Positions 2 to 5,795 of a DNA stretch of 64,000 bases are shown here, piece after piece (within the stretch, counting starts at the first letter, position 1; every line of letters starts with the position of its first letter). The notes under the pieces are model-generated. The model saw only the letters and a program-made list of their open reading frames with translations, was not told the DNA's origin and searched no databases. The position numbers were made by a program, and so were the translations under genes. Source of the stretch: Candidatus Nomurabacteria bacterium (GTDB lineage: Bacteria > Patescibacteriota > Minisyncoccia > Phycocordibacterales > SBAW01). The DNA lies in assembly GCA_943356495.1 (NCBI GenBank), contig CALRFF010000002.1, positions 99,826 through 163,825 of the forward strand, in the 5' to 3' direction.

Positions 2-154
2 AAAGACAACGGCGCTCCTGGCTATCGCCCGCAGTATCATCCAGGCTACTACGCCGCATTTGTGCTTGACCTTGATGGCTACAACATAGAGGCTGTGTGG
101 GATGACTTGGAAAAGCTAAAAGAAGGTGGATTTATAGCCCCTCATGACCTCTAA
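2..154 (+). CDS. VOC/glyoxalase-family protein, C-terminal fragment (5' end outside window)
   Basis: Frame 2 runs open from the window start to TAA at 152-154. The translation ...YHPGYYAAFVLDLDGYNIEAVWDD... matches the conserved C-terminal beta-strands of VOC/glyoxalase proteins. Confidence 0.45.
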   Translation, partial: KDNGAPGYRPQYHPGYYAAFVLDLDGYNIEAVWDDLEKLKEGGFIAPHDL

Positions 155-935
155 TATTGAAAAAAGCGTCGAGGTTTTTAATGAGACAGTCCAACCCGAA
201 GGTTGGAGTATGAATGTACGTTTGGATTTGAGGGGGAAGATATTTGAGAATGGGGCTAACTATTTAGAGACAAGGAAAGATTTACTTCTCGCAATGTGTC
301 TCAACAATGGCTACTACAAAAGAGAGAATGTATATCGGATGTTGAAGTTTGGGCTTGCTTTTTCAGACCGCGTACAAATTTTTACTACTGACGGCCCCGC
401 TAGACATAACTATCGGGCGCTTGGAAGACCTGAAAACGAAATCATTCGGGACACTCGCCTTGCACGCAATCGCCTCCGCAATCAATGTGTCGAGGGATTA
501 AAAAGGATAAATGATGAACTCGCTTCTGATAAACAAAGGCTGGTTTCGTTCTTAGATTGGGAGGATATTTACGGGGATATGTCTTACAAAGATTCGTACG
601 CTACATTGAAAGATTTATTTGGCACAAATTCTGACTTCCGTGCGGACGTTGAGAAGACCTCTAAAAAGGTTCTTTTAAACCGTATGGGTATAAAAAGAGA
701 TATAGATGCGGCTGTTTCAACAGCTACTGAGTATGTATTAGAAGAACTTGCTTTTATTCTTTCCTACCACTCTCTCAACTCTAAAACCAAACCTATAGCT
801 GACCATGGGCAGAGCTCGTTTAATTATATTTATTACGAGCCATGGTCTGTTTTTGAAAATCTTGTAAATGGGACATACAACGCTCAACCCAAAGAAGGGA
901 TAGGATTTGTTGTTGCACACATCGAGAGTAAATAG
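144..935 (+). CDS. hypothetical protein (263 aa), possible partner of the downstream reverse transcriptase
   Basis: Long ORF in a lower-GC segment with no recognisable motif. Its start overlaps the preceding stop by 11 nt. The RT gene lies 360 nt downstream on the same strand. Confidence 0.5.
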   Translation: MTSNIEKSVEVFNETVQPEGWSMNVRLDLRGKIFENGANYLETRKDLLLAMCLNNGYYKRENVYRMLKFGLAFSDRVQIFTTDGPARHNYRALGRPENEIIRDTRLARNRLRNQCVEGLKRINDELASDKQRLVSFLDWEDIYGDMSYKDSYATLKDLFGTNSDFRADVEKTSKKVLLNRMGIKRDIDAAVSTATEYVLEELAFILSYHSLNSKTKPIADHGQSSFNYIYYEPWSVFENLVNGTYNAQPKEGIGFVVAHIESK

Positions 936-1297: not shown

Positions 1298-2530
1298 ATG
1301 GCTGCTGATAAAAGTATCTTCTCTAAAGAAGCCTTAAAAAAGGCATGGAGGCGTATTTATCGCTCCAAATCAAAACGTAAAAGGAATACTTCTCGTGGTA
1401 TTGACGGGATTACAATTCAACAATTTAAGGACAACGAGGCAGAGTATATAGATACACTCTGGAAAGACTTACAAACAGATTCATTTCGTTTCCAAAAACT
1501 CTACGCCTATCAGCAGAAAAAGCCGGGCAAGAAAAAGCCTCGGTTGATTCAAGCCCCTACAGTAAGAGATCGTGTCGTGTTGTCGGTAATAAATAATTAT
1601 TTAGGACAACGACAGCCTGCCGACTCTTTCCGAGATTTAGGAATAGTCGGTTCAGTGAAAGGTACAACCCCTCGGCGTATTGTACGAGAGGTGCTTTCTT
1701 ACGAGAGTGAGGGATTTATCGCAGTCTTTAAAACTGACATAAAAGATTACTTTCCGTCGGTGGATATACCACGACTCAAACGGATGATGAACTCTCTTCT
1801 AAAGGAAGAGGTCTATTTACGCAAACTTATATTCGACTTTTTAAACATAAATAAAGAGAGAGGGCTTGCCCAAGGGTCGGCTATTTCTCCTCTGTTGGCG
1901 AATATTTACCTACGTGCGTTTGATAAAAAACTAGCCAACCGCAAAGACATCAAGCACTTACGATATGTGGATGACATCATCGTTTTTGCAAAAGAGAAAC
2001 GAAAAGCAAAGGAGGTATATAAACCTATAAAAGTGCAACTGTGGGGTAGAGGTCTCTCTATTCATTCTTTGTCGAGCAGGTCTAAGACGCAAACAGGCAT
2101 GCTCCGTTCTGGTGTCATTGATGTACTCGGCGTACGTTTTACGAAGCAAGGACTAAAAATAAAACAGAGTAAAGTTGATGGTTTTCGTAAAGAGGTAATC
2201 GGTAAGTTAAAGCCAGCAGTAATTCTTAAAGATGGAGACAAGAGTGTGCCTCAAAATCTTCGAGAGTATATTGAAAAACTCAATCATCGTATTAGAGGAT
2301 GGGGTAGTGCGTATGCCCTGTGCGACGAAGAAGAACTCTATACCCAATTGGATACGGAGATCCACGGTCGGCTAAATGCGCTTTTAGATTCCCTTTCAAC
2401 ACCTAGAGGAAAAGGTAGGCCAAGACTATTTCTGGATTCCTCTAAAAGGAAAAAGTTGTTGTTTTCGGTTGCTAAGTTAGAAAGCATCCGTATAAAAGTC
2501 CGCAGTAGCGCCCGATGGATGAGGAAATAG
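1298..2530 (+). CDS. reverse transcriptase, group-II-intron-like / retron-like (not DGR type), with thumb/X-like motif
   Basis: RT motif 0 is RGIDGITIQQF. Motif 2 is PTVRDRVV. Motif 4 is AQGSAISPLLANIYL (QGxxxSP). Motif 5 is RYVDDIIVFA (YxDD). The C-terminal RIRGWGSAY resembles the maturase domain-X RGWxxYY motif. No intron domain V/VI is seen downstream and there is no room upstream for domains I-III. Confidence 0.85.
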   Translation: MAADKSIFSKEALKKAWRRIYRSKSKRKRNTSRGIDGITIQQFKDNEAEYIDTLWKDLQTDSFRFQKLYAYQQKKPGKKKPRLIQAPTVRDRVVLSVINNYLGQRQPADSFRDLGIVGSVKGTTPRRIVREVLSYESEGFIAVFKTDIKDYFPSVDIPRLKRMMNSLLKEEVYLRKLIFDFLNINKERGLAQGSAISPLLANIYLRAFDKKLANRKDIKHLRYVDDIIVFAKEKRKAKEVYKPIKVQLWGRGLSIHSLSSRSKTQTGMLRSGVIDVLGVRFTKQGLKIKQSKVDGFRKEVIGKLKPAVILKDGDKSVPQNLREYIEKLNHRIRGWGSAYALCDEEELYTQLDTEIHGRLNALLDSLSTPRGKGRPRLFLDSSKRKKLLFSVAKLESIRIKVRSSARWMRK

Positions 2531-2533
2531 AAC

Positions 2534-2725
2534 CTAGCGTAGAGATTTATAGATCTCGGTTAGGTCTTTTACCGTAACATAAAACTCAGTACCGTCGCCT
2601 GTAATCTTCTTATCGGCAAGGTCTCTGACCATTTGCCCCATGATTTTCTGCTTTTTCTTTGATAGAGTGGAATATAGGTCGAGGAATCTACACTCTGCCT
2701 TTCGGTCGTTGAAGACCCTTTTCAT
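2534..2725 (-). CDS. small hypothetical protein (63 aa), translationally coupled to the serine recombinase
   Basis: Its start overlaps the recombinase stop by 4 nt on the same strand. The product is charged and basic. Confidence 0.4.
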   Translation of the reverse strand: MKRVFNDRKAECRFLDLYSTLSKKKQKIMGQMVRDLADKKITGDGTEFYVTVKDLTEIYKSLR

Positions 2726-4293
2726 CGGGCGTTAACATCATTAATGTTGTTAACATCCCCAACCATCTTGGCGACTAGACTTTGGGCTTCATAATAGGTT
2801 CTCACTTCGTCCACTACTCGGCACCAGAAGGGAAACTGCAAGTCGGAACCCGACCGCCTCGCGGACTCGGCGGTCAAAGCCCATAGTGTTTTCGGGCTGA
2901 ATTCAAATTGGCGATTTCGCAGAATATGGTTCGCGCCGATGTTTTTCAGAAATGCTGTCATGCCGCGGAAGTCGTTGCGGGAAAGCAGATTCGCGGCTTG
3001 ATTCAAGGACAAAACGAATTCACGAGCCGGTTCGAGCCAAGACACGCCTCTCTGCTCGATGTCGGTGATTTTTTCACCGATTCTCACTTTCTCGTTCACG
3101 AGCAGGTTCTTTTTGGCGGCGTATTCAGCTGTGGATAACGCGTCGTTCAGATATGCGTCCAGCAACTTTTCGAGCTTTGCATCTATATCTGTGACTTGTG
3201 TTTTCAGTTGCTGGACTTCACCTCGTGCTTCTTCTTTCGCCTGTGCCTCATCCTGCTCCAACGCCGCCAAAACCTTCTGCGTGTCTTGGCTCGACAAAGA
3301 AACTTTTTGTAGAAACAATTTGATTTGTTCTGTCAGCGCGGCTTCGCGTACATAATGCTTTTCGGTACATGCGCCTCGTTTCTTGGTACAGCGGTAGTAG
3401 GTGTAGATGCCGCCGTTGCCTTTCGCATATTGGGCGGTGATGGAGGCACCGCACGAGGCGCATTTCATGAGGCCGAGAAACGCGAAGTCGTTTTTGCGAA
3501 CTTCCTGCACCTTGCCGCGCTTGGCTAAAACTTCTTGGCATTTGTCAAAAAGTTTCTTTGTCAGAATCGGTTCGTGAGTTCCCTCAAAAATTTCCGACTT
3601 GAACCGCATAAGGCCGATGTAGAAGGGGTTTTGGAGTAGTTTTTGAACATTGCCCACCACGATTGTTTTGCCTCGGTGTCCCCGCAGGTTGTGCTCCTTG
3701 CACCAATTTGCGAGAGAGTAAAGAGTGTGGGCTCCAGTGGCGTACAGTTCAAAAAGTTTCCTCACTTTCGGTGACTTTTCGGCGTCCACATCAATACCGC
3801 GTGTGTTTGCATTGTTCAAGTACCCCACCGGAGCCCAGCCGGGCCATACGCCGTTTCGTATCTTTTGCCGCAAACCGCGCTTTACGTTCTCTCGCAAATT
3901 GTCAGAGAAGTATTTGGATTGCCCAAAAGCAATGTTCAGCATAAATAGTCCTTGTGGTGTCGGTTCAAACCAAAACGTCGGAAATTTGAGGGAACGAATC
4001 AAGCCGCGATCCACCATGTGGATGATTTTGCCTCCGTCCACGCTATTGCGAGCAAGGCGGTCAGGATGCCACGAGATAATCCCCTCTGCTTTCCCGCTCT
4101 CAATCAATGACAGCATTTCTGCGAATTTCATTCGCCCGGGCTCCTTGGCGGTTTTCGCCTCGCAGAACGAGGCGACAATATCAAATTTTTCTTTGGCGGA
4201 ATACTCTTGCAGCTCTGCGAGCTGCGCTTCAATGCTTAATACCTGCCGGTCATCTTCTTCGGTGGATTTGCGAGCGTAGAGTACATATTTCAT
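2722..4293 (-). CDS. large serine recombinase (resolvase/integrase family)
   Basis: N-terminal MKYVLYARKSTEEDDRQVLSIEAQ matches the YAR-S-T catalytic serine motif of resolvase domains. The recombinase domain, a zinc-ribbon (CASCGAS...YYRC) and a C-terminal coiled coil are present, typical of 500+ aa large serine recombinases. Confidence 0.9.
   Translation of the reverse strand: MKYVLYARKSTEEDDRQVLSIEAQLAELQEYSAKEKFDIVASFCEAKTAKEPGRMKFAEMLSLIESGKAEGIISWHPDRLARNSVDGGKIIHMVDRGLIRSLKFPTFWFEPTPQGLFMLNIAFGQSKYFSDNLRENVKRGLRQKIRNGVWPGWAPVGYLNNANTRGIDVDAEKSPKVRKLFELYATGAHTLYSLANWCKEHNLRGHRGKTIVVGNVQKLLQNPFYIGLMRFKSEIFEGTHEPILTKKLFDKCQEVLAKRGKVQEVRKNDFAFLGLMKCASCGASITAQYAKGNGGIYTYYRCTKKRGACTEKHYVREAALTEQIKLFLQKVSLSSQDTQKVLAALEQDEAQAKEEARGEVQQLKTQVTDIDAKLEKLLDAYLNDALSTAEYAAKKNLLVNEKVRIGEKITDIEQRGVSWLEPAREFVLSLNQAANLLSRNDFRGMTAFLKNIGANHILRNRQFEFSPKTLWALTAESARRSGSDLQFPFWCRVVDEVRTYYEAQSLVAKMVGDVNNINDVNAR
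2821..2921. repeat. IR-A: 101-bp perfect inverted repeat, copy inside the 3' end of the recombinase gene (partner at 4351..4451)
   Basis: The reverse complement of 2821-2921 equals 4351-4451 exactly. The recombinase C-terminal peptide NRQFEFSPKTLWALTAESARRSGSDLQFPFWC is therefore also encoded on the plus strand at 4351-4451. Confidence 0.9.
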
Positions 4294-4350
4294 GGCTTTT
4301 GGTACTTAAGAATTGGGAATAAGGAATGACCAAAAATTATTTTTCCCGAA

Positions 4351-4451
4351 TGCGAAATCGCCAATTTGAATTCAGCCCGAAAACACTATGGGCTTTGACC
4401 GCCGAGTCCGCGAGGCGGTCGGGTTCCGACTTGCAGTTTCCCTTCTGGTGC
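4351..4451. repeat. IR-A': partner of IR-A, abutting IR-B with a shared GTGC junction at 4448-4451
   Basis: Direct sequence comparison with the reverse complement of 2821-2921. Confidence 0.9.
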
Positions 4452-4551
4452 AGAATACTTGCATTAGTGCGAACCAGCCGCGCCGCCGGTGGCGGGGGCG
4501 GCGGCGCGGCGGGCCCCTTGCAAAAAACGCAGGCGGCGCAGCCGCTCCGCT
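4448..4551. repeat. IR-B: 104-bp perfect inverted repeat (partner at 5663..5766)
   Basis: The reverse complement of 5663-5766 equals 4448-4551. The stretch is G/C-rich (ccgccggtggcgggggcggcggcgcggcgggcc). Confidence 0.9.
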
Positions 4552-4690
4552 CGAAAACCGCCAAGGAGCCCGGAAAACATCGGCGCGAACTCATATTCTT
4601 CATAGGAATTCGGGAAAAATAATTTTTGGCCATACAATACTGAAATTAGCTTGTATATACAGGGTATTTTGGCATTTGCCCCAGGCGGGC

Positions 4691-4719
4691 TTGACAGGAT
4701 AGGCAAGGTATGCTATCCT
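4691..4719 (+). promoter_or_regulatory. candidate sigma70 promoter for ORF 4772..5443
   Basis: TTGACA at 4691-4696, a 17-nt spacer, then TATCCT at 4714-4719, about 50 nt upstream of the ORF. Confidence 0.35.
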
Positions 4720-4771
4720 ATACGCAGACGAACCAATCAACCGCGCTGAGGCGCAACCCTAGGAGGGGAAC

Positions 4772-5443
4772 ATGAAAGCTGTATTCTACCGTCATAACGA
4801 AACGTTGGCGGCTCTGGTTGCGAAGGCCAATCCTGATTTCGTCCATGAGTTTCCTGCCGAGATGTCCGTCGAGGACATTAAGCAAGAGCTCCTGACACGA
4901 AAGGCAGTGAAGCCGCTTATGGAACTAGTCTTCCCGCCAGACAATTCTTTCCACGATTGCGAGGTGCATGTGGACGGGACGGTCATGGCAGCCGGGATTG
5001 ACACGGTTCTCTGGCAACCATGTTCGCTTCACCTCATCCGTCAAGACAATGTGGGGGCGTACGATTGGTACGCTACCCGTGTTGCCGAAGCGGCCAATCT
5101 TTCCAGCCGAGTTATTGTGGTCAGCGATAGAATCGCGGACCACAATAGCGAAGCACTTTCTTCTCGAGAGGACTTCAGCCGTTACCAAACGGATGAAACG
5201 TATCGAGCGGAGGTGGAAAACTTGGTCGTCGCAAAATGGGTGGAGCGACTGGCGAAGCATGGAATCACTCCTGAAGTCGTCAACGTCGGCACGTTCCGTG
5301 GAATGCTTCTCTCAGGCGCCGTGGTGGTCTGTGATCATCACAATGGCGATATCTGTGAGCTCGAGGATTCCGTTGGATCAAGGGGAGGAATTTGGTTTAA
5401 TGCCTTCCCTTCATGTGGCGATGACGATTTTCTGGCCATGTAG
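4772..5443 (+). CDS. hypothetical protein (223 aa) lying between IR-B and IR-B'
   Basis: ORF preceded by an AGGAGG ribosome-binding site (ctaggaggggaacATG). No recognisable motif. Confidence 0.5.
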   Translation: MKAVFYRHNETLAALVAKANPDFVHEFPAEMSVEDIKQELLTRKAVKPLMELVFPPDNSFHDCEVHVDGTVMAAGIDTVLWQPCSLHLIRQDNVGAYDWYATRVAEAANLSSRVIVVSDRIADHNSEALSSREDFSRYQTDETYRAEVENLVVAKWVERLAKHGITPEVVNVGTFRGMLLSGAVVVCDHHNGDICELEDSVGSRGGIWFNAFPSCGDDDFLAM

Positions 5444-5662
5444 CTGGATCGGAGCGGGTTGATACCCCGCTTGGCAACAGAAGGTTCGAGTACTCGCAAG
5501 AGGCAGTAGGACCAAAACAATCATCGCGAAGCCACGCCGCGATTCATAAATTGTCTGCAAGCCATCTCTCACGAGGTGGCTTTCTTCTTTTTGTAAAAGA
5601 ACAATGCGGTATGCGCTCCGCGCATTCAAAATTTTTCCGCCAAAGAAAAATCTGATATTGTC

Positions 5663-5766
5663 AGCGGAGCGGCTGCGCCGCCTGCGTTTTTTGCAAGGGG
5701 CCCGCCGCGCCGCCGCCCCCGCCACCGGCGGCGCGGCTGGTTCGCACTAATGCAAGTATTCTGCAC
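5663..5766. repeat. IR-B': partner of IR-B
   Basis: Direct sequence comparison. Confidence 0.9.
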
Positions 5767-5768
5767 AA

Positions 5769-5795
5769 AATAATCCCCGAAAGGGGATTATTTGA
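5769..5795 (+). terminator. rho-independent terminator-like hairpin
   Basis: taatcccc-GAAA-ggggatta stem-loop followed by TTTG. Confidence 0.4.

Follow-up and report, generated by a model that had tools for sequence, protein, structure and literature searches.

Large serine integrases such as those of phiC31, Bxb1 and A118 and SprA of SPbeta are three-domain enzymes that act on short attachment (att) sites meeting at a small core, with P- and B-type motifs offset by 5 bp and conservative insertion. The same features are found at 2821–5766 of the DNA analysed here, a window of 64,000 nucleotides (nt) from Candidatus Nomurabacteria bacterium (assembly GCA_943356495.1, contig CALRFF010000002.1, positions 99,826 to 163,825). 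In all likelihood this segment is an integrative element of 2,946 bp, E1, from a very populous large serine recombinase (LSR) family of the Candidate Phyla Radiation (CPR/Patescibacteria), inserted at a tRNA-Leu gene of its uncultured host. Unlike the phages with large serine integrases, the E1 family targets the 3' ends of many tRNAs, carries its attP inside the integrase open reading frame (ORF) and holds an internal, inverted second attP. Its members are small (2.3–4.4 kb from core to core), carry one cargo gene and have no evident directionality factor.

In myxophage Mx8 (intP/intX) and in SSV1 (int), attP also lies inside the integrase gene. E1 shares with them a crossover in integrase coding sequence and a C-terminus that is changed by integration; unlike these tyrosine integrases, which are not known to keep a spare inverted 3' end, the E1 enzyme is a serine recombinase and such an end is kept in the element. 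The Hin, Gin and Cin systems resemble E1 in having the recombinase gene in a segment bounded by inverted repeats, and one relative of E1 is flipped. However, these invertases are small (~190 amino acids, aa), end in a helix–turn–helix and use ~26-bp hix or gix sites with a Fis enhancer, whereas the E1 enzyme comprises 523 aa and its att arms ~100 nt. Nor do the repeats of these systems serve an inserted element as att arms. The R64 shufflon employs the tyrosine recombinase Rci and multiple 19-bp sfx repeats on pilV 3' segments, in contrast to the serine enzyme and two repeat pairs of E1. In the composite islands of the staphylococcal cassette chromosome (SCC), Ccr large serine recombinases act at the 3' end of rlmH; islands also accrete in tandem at tRNA genes. 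E1 and its neighbour E2 likewise bring related recombinases in tandem to one target, with the presumably newer element next to the target gene. Target and recombinase families differ from those of SCC, and a twin-site architecture is present in E1, not in E2. E1 recombines known ideas—an LSR element, an attP inside the integrase gene, a tandem array—and we know of no other system that joins LSR targeting of tRNA 3' ends, a single-cargo format and a conserved internal inverted attP.

E1 features two pairs of inverted repeats (IRs), as judged by a repeat search and direct alignment. IR-A (2821–2921, minus strand) is the reverse complement of IR-A' (also A2; 4351–4451, plus strand) over 101 nt, and IR-B (4448–4551, plus strand) is that of IR-B' (5663–5766, minus strand) over 104 nt, both at 100% identity; the two pairs overlap by the GTGC at 4448–4451. 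Perfect inverted repeats of 100 nt cannot have arisen by chance. Homology breaks exactly at GCAC/GTGC at three junctions: J1 (2821–2824, GCAC on the plus strand), J2 (4448–4451, GTGC on the plus strand) and J3 (5763–5766, GCAC). An earlier note, made from the letters of this DNA alone, had described both pairs as perfect and meeting at GTGC and had related them to the recombinase, all of which holds; the GTGC junctions are crossover cores. Its exact GCAC/GTGC breakpoints stand at all three junctions, with J1 corrected from 2819–2824 to 2821–2824, and the ORFs that it described are all present, at 2722–4293 (recombinase, minus strand), 4326–4622 (plus) and 4772–5443 (plus). The match of IR-A extends to 125 nt at a lower identity of 93%, as the arms on the outer side of the core are half-sites related to one another. 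Beyond the core, the arms are asymmetric with lengths of 97 and 100 nt. When J2 is read on the reverse strand, the junctions become X1/A, rcB/A and rcB/Y—X1 and Y being the sequences outside J1 and J3, and rc the reverse complement—and a single site-specific exchange yields four products, of which these are three. IR-A, inside the recombinase gene, is the P' arm and IR-B the P arm. J2, where A' meets B, is a complete second attP in inverted orientation, with the recombinase gene on one side and the single variable cargo gene on the other; this internal copy doubles each arm and so gives rise to the two adjoining repeat pairs. Dyad symmetry in the window suggests AC, with some uncertainty, as the crossover dinucleotide.

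The empty site is found in L087, a contig of a metagenome-assembled genome (GCA_943356795.1) that carries an identical DUF475 gene. Over 9,054 nt it matches the window at 99.96% identity, and the match starts exactly with the GCAC core at 5763. Left of the match, L087 encodes ribosomal protein L19 and a tRNA-Leu(GAG) ending in ...CCTGAGCAC/AAAATAATCCCCGAAAGGGG, and its empty site reads tRNA-Leu(GAG)...GCAC/AAAATAATCCCC (likewise GCAC/AAAATAAT). Since the homology begins at the core, J3 is the true attR, and the 3' end of tRNA-Leu(GAG) serves as attB. This attR is composed of IR-B', the outer P arm, and of Y (5767–5795, plus strand), the B' arm of the bacterial site, which is a hairpin directly following the tRNA in the empty site. 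What distinguishes the occupied from the empty site is a precise insertion with the short common core at its ends, and no target duplication is seen beyond that core. Relatives show the same ends: host/GTGC/arm at the far end and gene-TGGTGC/tRNA at the other, and in L008 a tRNA cluster accommodates the unit cleanly between two of its members. Upstream of the tRNA-Leu, at 3283–3600, L087 appears by eye to contain a partial duplicate of the 5' half of this tRNA, followed by a small ORF (...YLYVGLTSNLERRLGQHNSG...) that looks like a GIY-YIG nuclease.

The recombinase gene of E1 (2722–4293, minus strand; family-conserved part 2821–4293) encodes a 523-aa product with the Pfam domains Resolvase (PF00239, 1e-21), Recombinase (PF07508, 3e-15) and Zn_ribbon_recom (PF13408, 2e-9) and is a three-domain large serine recombinase. 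A protein database search yields more than 7,000 homologues in CPR bacteria. The nearest solved structures, SprA and A118 Int, match weakly but significantly (E~1e-7), and identity to phage and plasmid integrases is below 30%. The top 120 homologues, to which the tail and alignment counts below refer, are 72–89% identical and all from CPR/Patescibacteria; nearly all of them align only to residue 491 (~94% of the query), which lies at the W-C codons of the GTGC core. IR-A contributes the last ~33 conserved codons (...RNRQFEFSPK...FPFWC). The viral collection IMG/VR holds the family in two partial matches only and otherwise lacks it; these predicted viral contigs, L090 and L091, end inside the first 117 codons of a family member. 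A full-text literature search found no description of the E1 family, an absence that is no proof of undescribed status; the family is apparently undescribed.

The targets of the family were surveyed in 80 related loci from species genomes of GTDB. The TGG-TGC codons of the recombinase overlap the CCA end of a convergent tRNA, so that the GCAC crossover core corresponds to tRNA positions 71–74, and 13 different tRNA types are targeted. Proteins that are at least 91% identical, i.e., cluster mates, are located at different tRNAs, which points to recent mobility and a broad target range. Across 54 tRNA arms, the T-loop motif TCGAAC lies at +13..18 from the core, whereas in 26 P arms CGAAC lies at +19..23 within a motif at +18..23. 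The P motif is hence shifted outward by 5 bp relative to the tRNA arm, a displacement of the kind that Rutherford, Van Duyne and colleagues reportedly described in 2013 for the attB and attP motifs of LSRs. The B' arm, on the far host flank, is not conserved. An integrase recognising the universal tRNA T-arm and 3' end is a candidate for a new kind of multi-target serine integrase.

J1 has no tRNA beside it because a second element, E2, whose cargo is unrelated, sits between the tRNA-Leu and E1. J1 is a sharp compositional boundary, with a GC content of ~43% for more than 10 kb leftward and of 52–59% over the remaining 58 kb of the window. The Logan contig L089 carries, ~11.4 kb into the low-GC DNA, a second LSR gene with 32% identity to that of E1. 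Its 3' end reads ...CTGTGC/TCAGGAGAGGACTCGAACC (also ...CTGTGC/TCAGGAGAGGACTCGAACCTCCAAGCCCTTGCGG), and 34 of the 34 nt after its core are the reverse complement of the 3' part of the L087 tRNA-Leu. This fusion establishes the order tRNA-Leu, E2, E1, Y, i.e., a tandem array. E2 spans ~13.1 kb at ~43% GC (L089 31–13164) and extends ~10.3 kb beyond the window start; its right-hand 2.8 kb form positions 1–2820 of the window, as seen from the GC step, L089, Pfam and PADLOC. J1 therefore joins the E2 P arm to the E1 P' arm, and the expected attL (tRNA-Leu/A) is displaced. The E2 P arm, X1 (2722–2820, minus strand), has P-type spacing, with GAGAAC at +18..23 from the core, and its P-type half-site (2797–2820, minus strand) matches the P arm of E1 at 15 of 24 positions. 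X1 supplies the present 32-aa tail of the E1 recombinase (RVVDEVRTYY...), which the earlier note had taken for an alternative tail of the E1 gene itself and which belongs instead to E2. As X1 is the native tail-coding end of the un-integrated E2 recombinase gene, the E1 ORF continues with an LVRT-like tail and its stop overlaps the next ATG. In the simplest history, E1 would have inserted first and E2 would then have used tRNA-Leu/A as its target; the lack of constraint on the B' half-site makes such a use plausible. E2 shows no internal inverted repeats, and only the E1 family accordingly has the twin-repeat layout. No tRNA was located at a distance of up to 10 kb from X1. X1 was also considered as a degenerate tRNA; ARAGORN and Rfam detected none, and folding by hand as a T-arm and acceptor failed. 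A walk from L19 to the tRNA-Leu within the same study ended, in L088, ~40 nt before the tRNA.

Several lines of evidence indicate that arm B is coding. The frame continuing from W-C leaves the arm free of stops in 18 of 18 loci (other frames: 0 and 2 of 18), and the distance to a conserved end motif is a multiple of three in all 18 although it takes six lengths between 81 and 123 nt. The first ten arm codons vary most at third positions (0.185/0.131/0.349), and a TGA directly follows the outer arm copy. Taken together, frame, length, third-position bias and stop imply that the un-integrated gene encodes a conserved tail of ~30 aa, which reads SILELVRTHF...PPRKFGKAAEPHR in the family and RILALVRTSR...QPLR in the window. 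IR-B, the inner P arm, comprises a P-type half-site and, in addition, this C-terminal coding extension (RILALVRTSRAAGGGG...QPLR). The earlier note had proposed that inverting the segment between the A repeats would swap the recombinase tail for one beginning RILALVRT...; the swap holds as a consequence of the layout, and the proposed alternative is this conserved extension. With its core at the W-C codons, the crossover takes place within the integrase ORF and alters the C-terminus, and integration at a tRNA swaps the conserved tail for tRNA-antisense junk. In ~103 of the 120 homologues the tail is the reverse complement of a tRNA T-arm (...ESNPH...); one reads into a B-type arm and a few into other arms. 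At J2, the last ~67 codons are stored in inverted form. An in-frame ATG occurs 34 codons before the core in 14 of 27 loci, and in the window a predicted 98-aa ORF (4326–4622, plus strand) runs through A', the core, B, q and r, comprising the last ~34 conserved recombinase residues and the native tail. This conserved small ORF is a candidate directionality factor. A mirror-image 98-aa ORF lies at 4337–4633 (minus strand) because 26-nt inverted copies of u flank J2; both ORFs start with M(T/A)KNYFSR and end with IREK.

The layout is shared throughout the family. Upstream sequence of 600 nt or more is available for ~47 related loci. In 45 of these, the final ~100 nt of the gene recur in inverted form 30–70 nt before its start codon, and ~37 also have a second arm copy 0.6–2.6 kb further on. 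The large repeats are accompanied by four short ones, three of which (p, q and u) abut them, each a segment in or next to the recombinase gene (minus strand) with an inverted copy in the cargo block: p (4174–4209, gene positions s85–120; copy 5627–5662), q (4136–4157, s137–158; copy 4552–4573), r (2921–2945; copy 4574–4599) and u, just upstream of the gene (4326–4351; copy 4608–4633). Fine anatomy is identical in the window and 14 related loci mapped in detail. It runs outer arm, rc(s92–120), cargo, rc(upstream −43..−16), rc(s1335–1361), rc(s138–158), and continues with inverted arm, core, inverted A, gene, core, tRNA. The two members of a long repeat pair are 93–100% identical in any one locus, whereas between loci A is 0.69 and arm nt 31–90 only 0.38 identical; this combination demonstrates concerted evolution. 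The cargo block (4552–5662, plus strand) holds q, r, u, cargo and p. Its order q-r-u-cargo-p is a circular permutation of u-cargo-p-(17 nt)-q-r; the permuted block is a copy of the recombinase locus with the body deleted, the first ~90 nt replaced by cargo, and opened where the arms attach, and its r–u joint closes the ends of the recombinase segment. None of the inversion series tried reduced the p/q/r/u mosaic to a colinear ancestor.

Each element has a single cargo ORF, which varies between loci and in most cases is oriented divergently to the recombinase gene. The 32 unrelated clusters of cargo ORFs among 36 loci include methyltransferase-like and secreted products, labels that were given by reading the sequences, and an HNH endonuclease in L082. 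In the window, a 223-aa ORF (4772–5443, plus strand) without a Pfam or PADLOC match is framed by a promoter-like site (4691–4719) and a terminator-like hairpin (5559–5582).

Five further inverted repeats occupy fixed positions within the recombinase gene (2722–4293), nested without crossing: s173–189:s1319–1335, s287–297:s1291–1301, s393–406:s577–590, s735–748:s985–998 and s1000–1012:s1250–1262. Across ~50 family members, pairing amounts to 92–99% in four of them and to ~89% in the first, with compensatory changes in several columns. Apart from one helix (36 versus 3), there is a balance of G.T and A.C mismatches, by which RNA-level and DNA-level pairing are indistinguishable.

The earlier note had counted a lack of relatives in the other orientation against its proposal, and one such relative has been found. 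L082, the contig encoding protein P0026, has the order gene-A-core-arm-q-r-u-cargo(HNH)-p-inverted arm-core-flank. From A' onward the window has the same order, except that the full gene of L082 stands where the window has the orphan A'; the L082 contig breaks at the inner edge of A. L082 represents an in-situ inversion of the recombinase segment, with the gene re-fused to its arm tail. Integration through either of two attPs of a circle was ruled out as its origin, as q stays next to the arm. Within the 90% cluster of L082 itself, one of ~9 informative members is flipped.

For the role of the internal attP, our leading guess, and a tentative one, is a stored native 3' end that serves as a dormancy switch, possibly by way of the small ORF. 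Integration would truncate the recombinase by replacing its conserved tail, and the internal attP copy would keep the native 3' end in store. Rarely, the segment between A and A' would invert, re-fuse the gene to that end and so act as a switch between dormancy and reactivation; alternatively, the small ORF would supply the tail in trans. A broader interpretation, possible though less favoured, sees a previously undescribed class of minimal "single-gene shuttle" elements, abundant in CPR, that would control their own serine integrase by DNA rearrangement and dispense with a separate directionality factor; the p/q/r/u copies and the nested in-gene repeats would then belong to the control of rearrangement. 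An internal inverted attP together with a tail swap bears on the control of directionality in serine integrase elements that have no obvious accessory factor. Few mobile elements of CPR/Patescibacteria may be commoner than the E1 family; genetic tools are almost lacking for this group, and the family's one cargo gene between fixed flanks makes it a candidate gene-delivery vehicle for these bacteria.

A number of observations weigh against this account. The evidence on E1 consists of assembled contigs, from which the circle junction and the inversion activity are predicted. By the canonical rules, LSRs recombine attP only with attB, and attL x attP and attP x attR are excluded, so an inversion would need RecA-type homologous recombination or a non-canonical activity. 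No recombination directionality factor was identified, and there is no conserved second gene, given that the cargo differs in 32 of 36 loci. The flipped state is rare, at 1% or less: it is found in one of 120 proteins and in none of 62 loci with a scorable full-length gene, and no flipped cargo block was seen in the 15 loci mapped in detail or in L082; with so rare a flip and so invariant a cargo, a frequently operating switch is not supported. Moreover, the C-terminal 13 codons of the arm lack third-position bias, and the p/q/r/u copies and nested in-gene inverted repeats are unaccounted for by the model.

That J2 is not a recombination substrate but a regulatory operator or insulator, bound by the recombinase between divergent genes, with arm copies as terminators and A' as part of a promoter, is an unlikely alternative to the stored 3' end. 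J2 does lie between divergent genes and is flanked by mirrored u copies, both arm copies contain a terminator-like hairpin facing outward from the cargo, and a promoter-like site for the recombinase (4364→4336, minus strand) has its −35 element in distal A' and its −10 element in u. The analogy is Tn3 resolvase, which binds res. However, the J2 core is ~85 nt from the promoter-like site, the weak family-wide promoter match reaches 9/12 in only 2 of 59 loci, and ~50 bp would suffice for an operator, as against the 200 bp kept identical to the outer arms. A conserved sigma-70 promoter at the A'/u joint was rejected, its consensus not being conserved.

The internal site and the p/q/r/u copies might instead be a functionless relic of one ancient self-insertion or duplication, kept alike by gene conversion, which we consider improbable. 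The same repeat boundaries in all relatives do speak for one ancestral event, the orientation is nearly fixed, and the mismatches show no strand bias that would indicate a folded RNA. Yet a relic would have to persist in 45 of ~47 loci whose recombinases are only 63–89% identical, in tiny elements and streamlined genomes; the short copies of 20–29 nt are 95–100% identical to their partners, and arm pairs are kept even by recombinase-less derivatives. One such derivative, L003 15439–17585 at the same tRNA-Leu(GAG), is bounded by perfect inverted repeats of 291 nt. Its recombinase module is collapsed to a hairpin of ~45 nt and its cargo includes a type IV pilin-like ORF; it looks like a non-autonomous form resembling miniature inverted-repeat transposable elements.

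The earlier note had likened the locus to the P1 C segment, the Mu G segment or a shufflon and had set out what an inversion between the B repeats would do. A phase-variable switch of this type, with frequent flipping of the recombinase segment (1.43 kb) as well as the cargo segment (1.1 kb) in the manner of Hin/Gin/Cin or of a shufflon, is very unlikely. In its favour, perfect inverted repeats flank both segments, the recombinase lies inside one of them as in hin, that segment is reversed in one relative, and concerted evolution implies that the repeats recombine. Against this, the empty site and the tRNA junctions identify the repeats as the att arms of an inserted element, the 523-aa enzyme is a large serine integrase and neither a ~190-aa invertase nor a tyrosine Rci, the tRNA-side tails are unconserved junk, and, besides the low counts of flipped recombinase segments given above, the cargo has one orientation in all loci mapped, which leaves B inversion without an example.

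Folding of a single-stranded element, in which A-core-B and its inverted copy would form a 201-bp duplex attP as in attC or CTX-phi attP(+), is remoter still: in a single-stranded circle, pairing between the two 201-nt copies would be perfect, and the gene is rich in conserved nested inverted repeats, but serine recombinases cut both strands of both partners, so that hairpin-capped chromosome ends would result, and a single-stranded stage is speculation without evidence, rolling-circle and transfer genes being absent. Almost no weight attaches to an assembly artefact, which the earlier note had allowed for as a collapsed repeat or chimera, or to two genomes sharing the element and mis-joined: the GC content does jump exactly at J1, from ~43% to ~55%, the repeat lengths are near common k-mer sizes and many related contigs break near or inside the recombinase gene, but the source contig was assembled with MEGAHIT at k=141, which exceeds the repeat length of 101–104 nt and bridges each repeat, seven contigs show the same arrangement, the X1/A joint of J1 recurs in independent Logan k=31 contigs from other runs, the arms are asymmetric, and the family-wide layout comes from several assemblers. 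A chimera between genomes at J1 was considered seriously for its GC step and dropped once the low-GC DNA was found to end in its own recombinase, fused precisely to the tRNA-Leu of the empty site; tandem elements at one tRNA can look like a chimeric contig.

E2 carries further genes. Within the window these are a cyclodipeptide synthase (CDPS) gene (144–935, plus strand; Pfam), a UG17-class defence-type reverse transcriptase (1298–2530, plus strand; PADLOC 2.5e-49) and a 63-aa ORF (2534–2725, minus strand); NUDIX, HIT, Ham1, UDG (uracil-DNA glycosylase) and AA-kinase/PUA genes are also present, and E2 looks like a defence or accessory island. A link of the repeats to the adjacent reverse transcriptase, as in diversity-generating retroelements or retrons, was rejected: the enzyme is of the UG17 class and lies in E2, and the repeats are 100% identical and inverted. 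At 2722–2725, an ATGA is shared by the stop codon of the E1 recombinase ORF and the start codon of the 63-aa ORF. Since X1 belongs to E2, the 63-aa gene is probably coupled to the un-integrated E2 recombinase gene, and its product is a candidate accessory or directionality factor.

In several relatives, a third recurrent arm type (tail VYFTKSEPIFK...) replaces the tRNA after the recombinase gene (L015 5708–6796 and L031 11462–11532; proteins P0027, P0037, P0071, P0085 and P0087). By analogy with X1, these arms may be the P arms of neighbouring tandem elements. Ten contigs (L044, L048, L050, L052, L054, L056, L060, L063, L069 and L072) start inside the recombinase gene, at residues 23–49. Such starts probably reflect near-identity of the 5' ~150 nt among elements of one sample, which tangles the assembly graph; structural variation at p/q may be an alternative cause.

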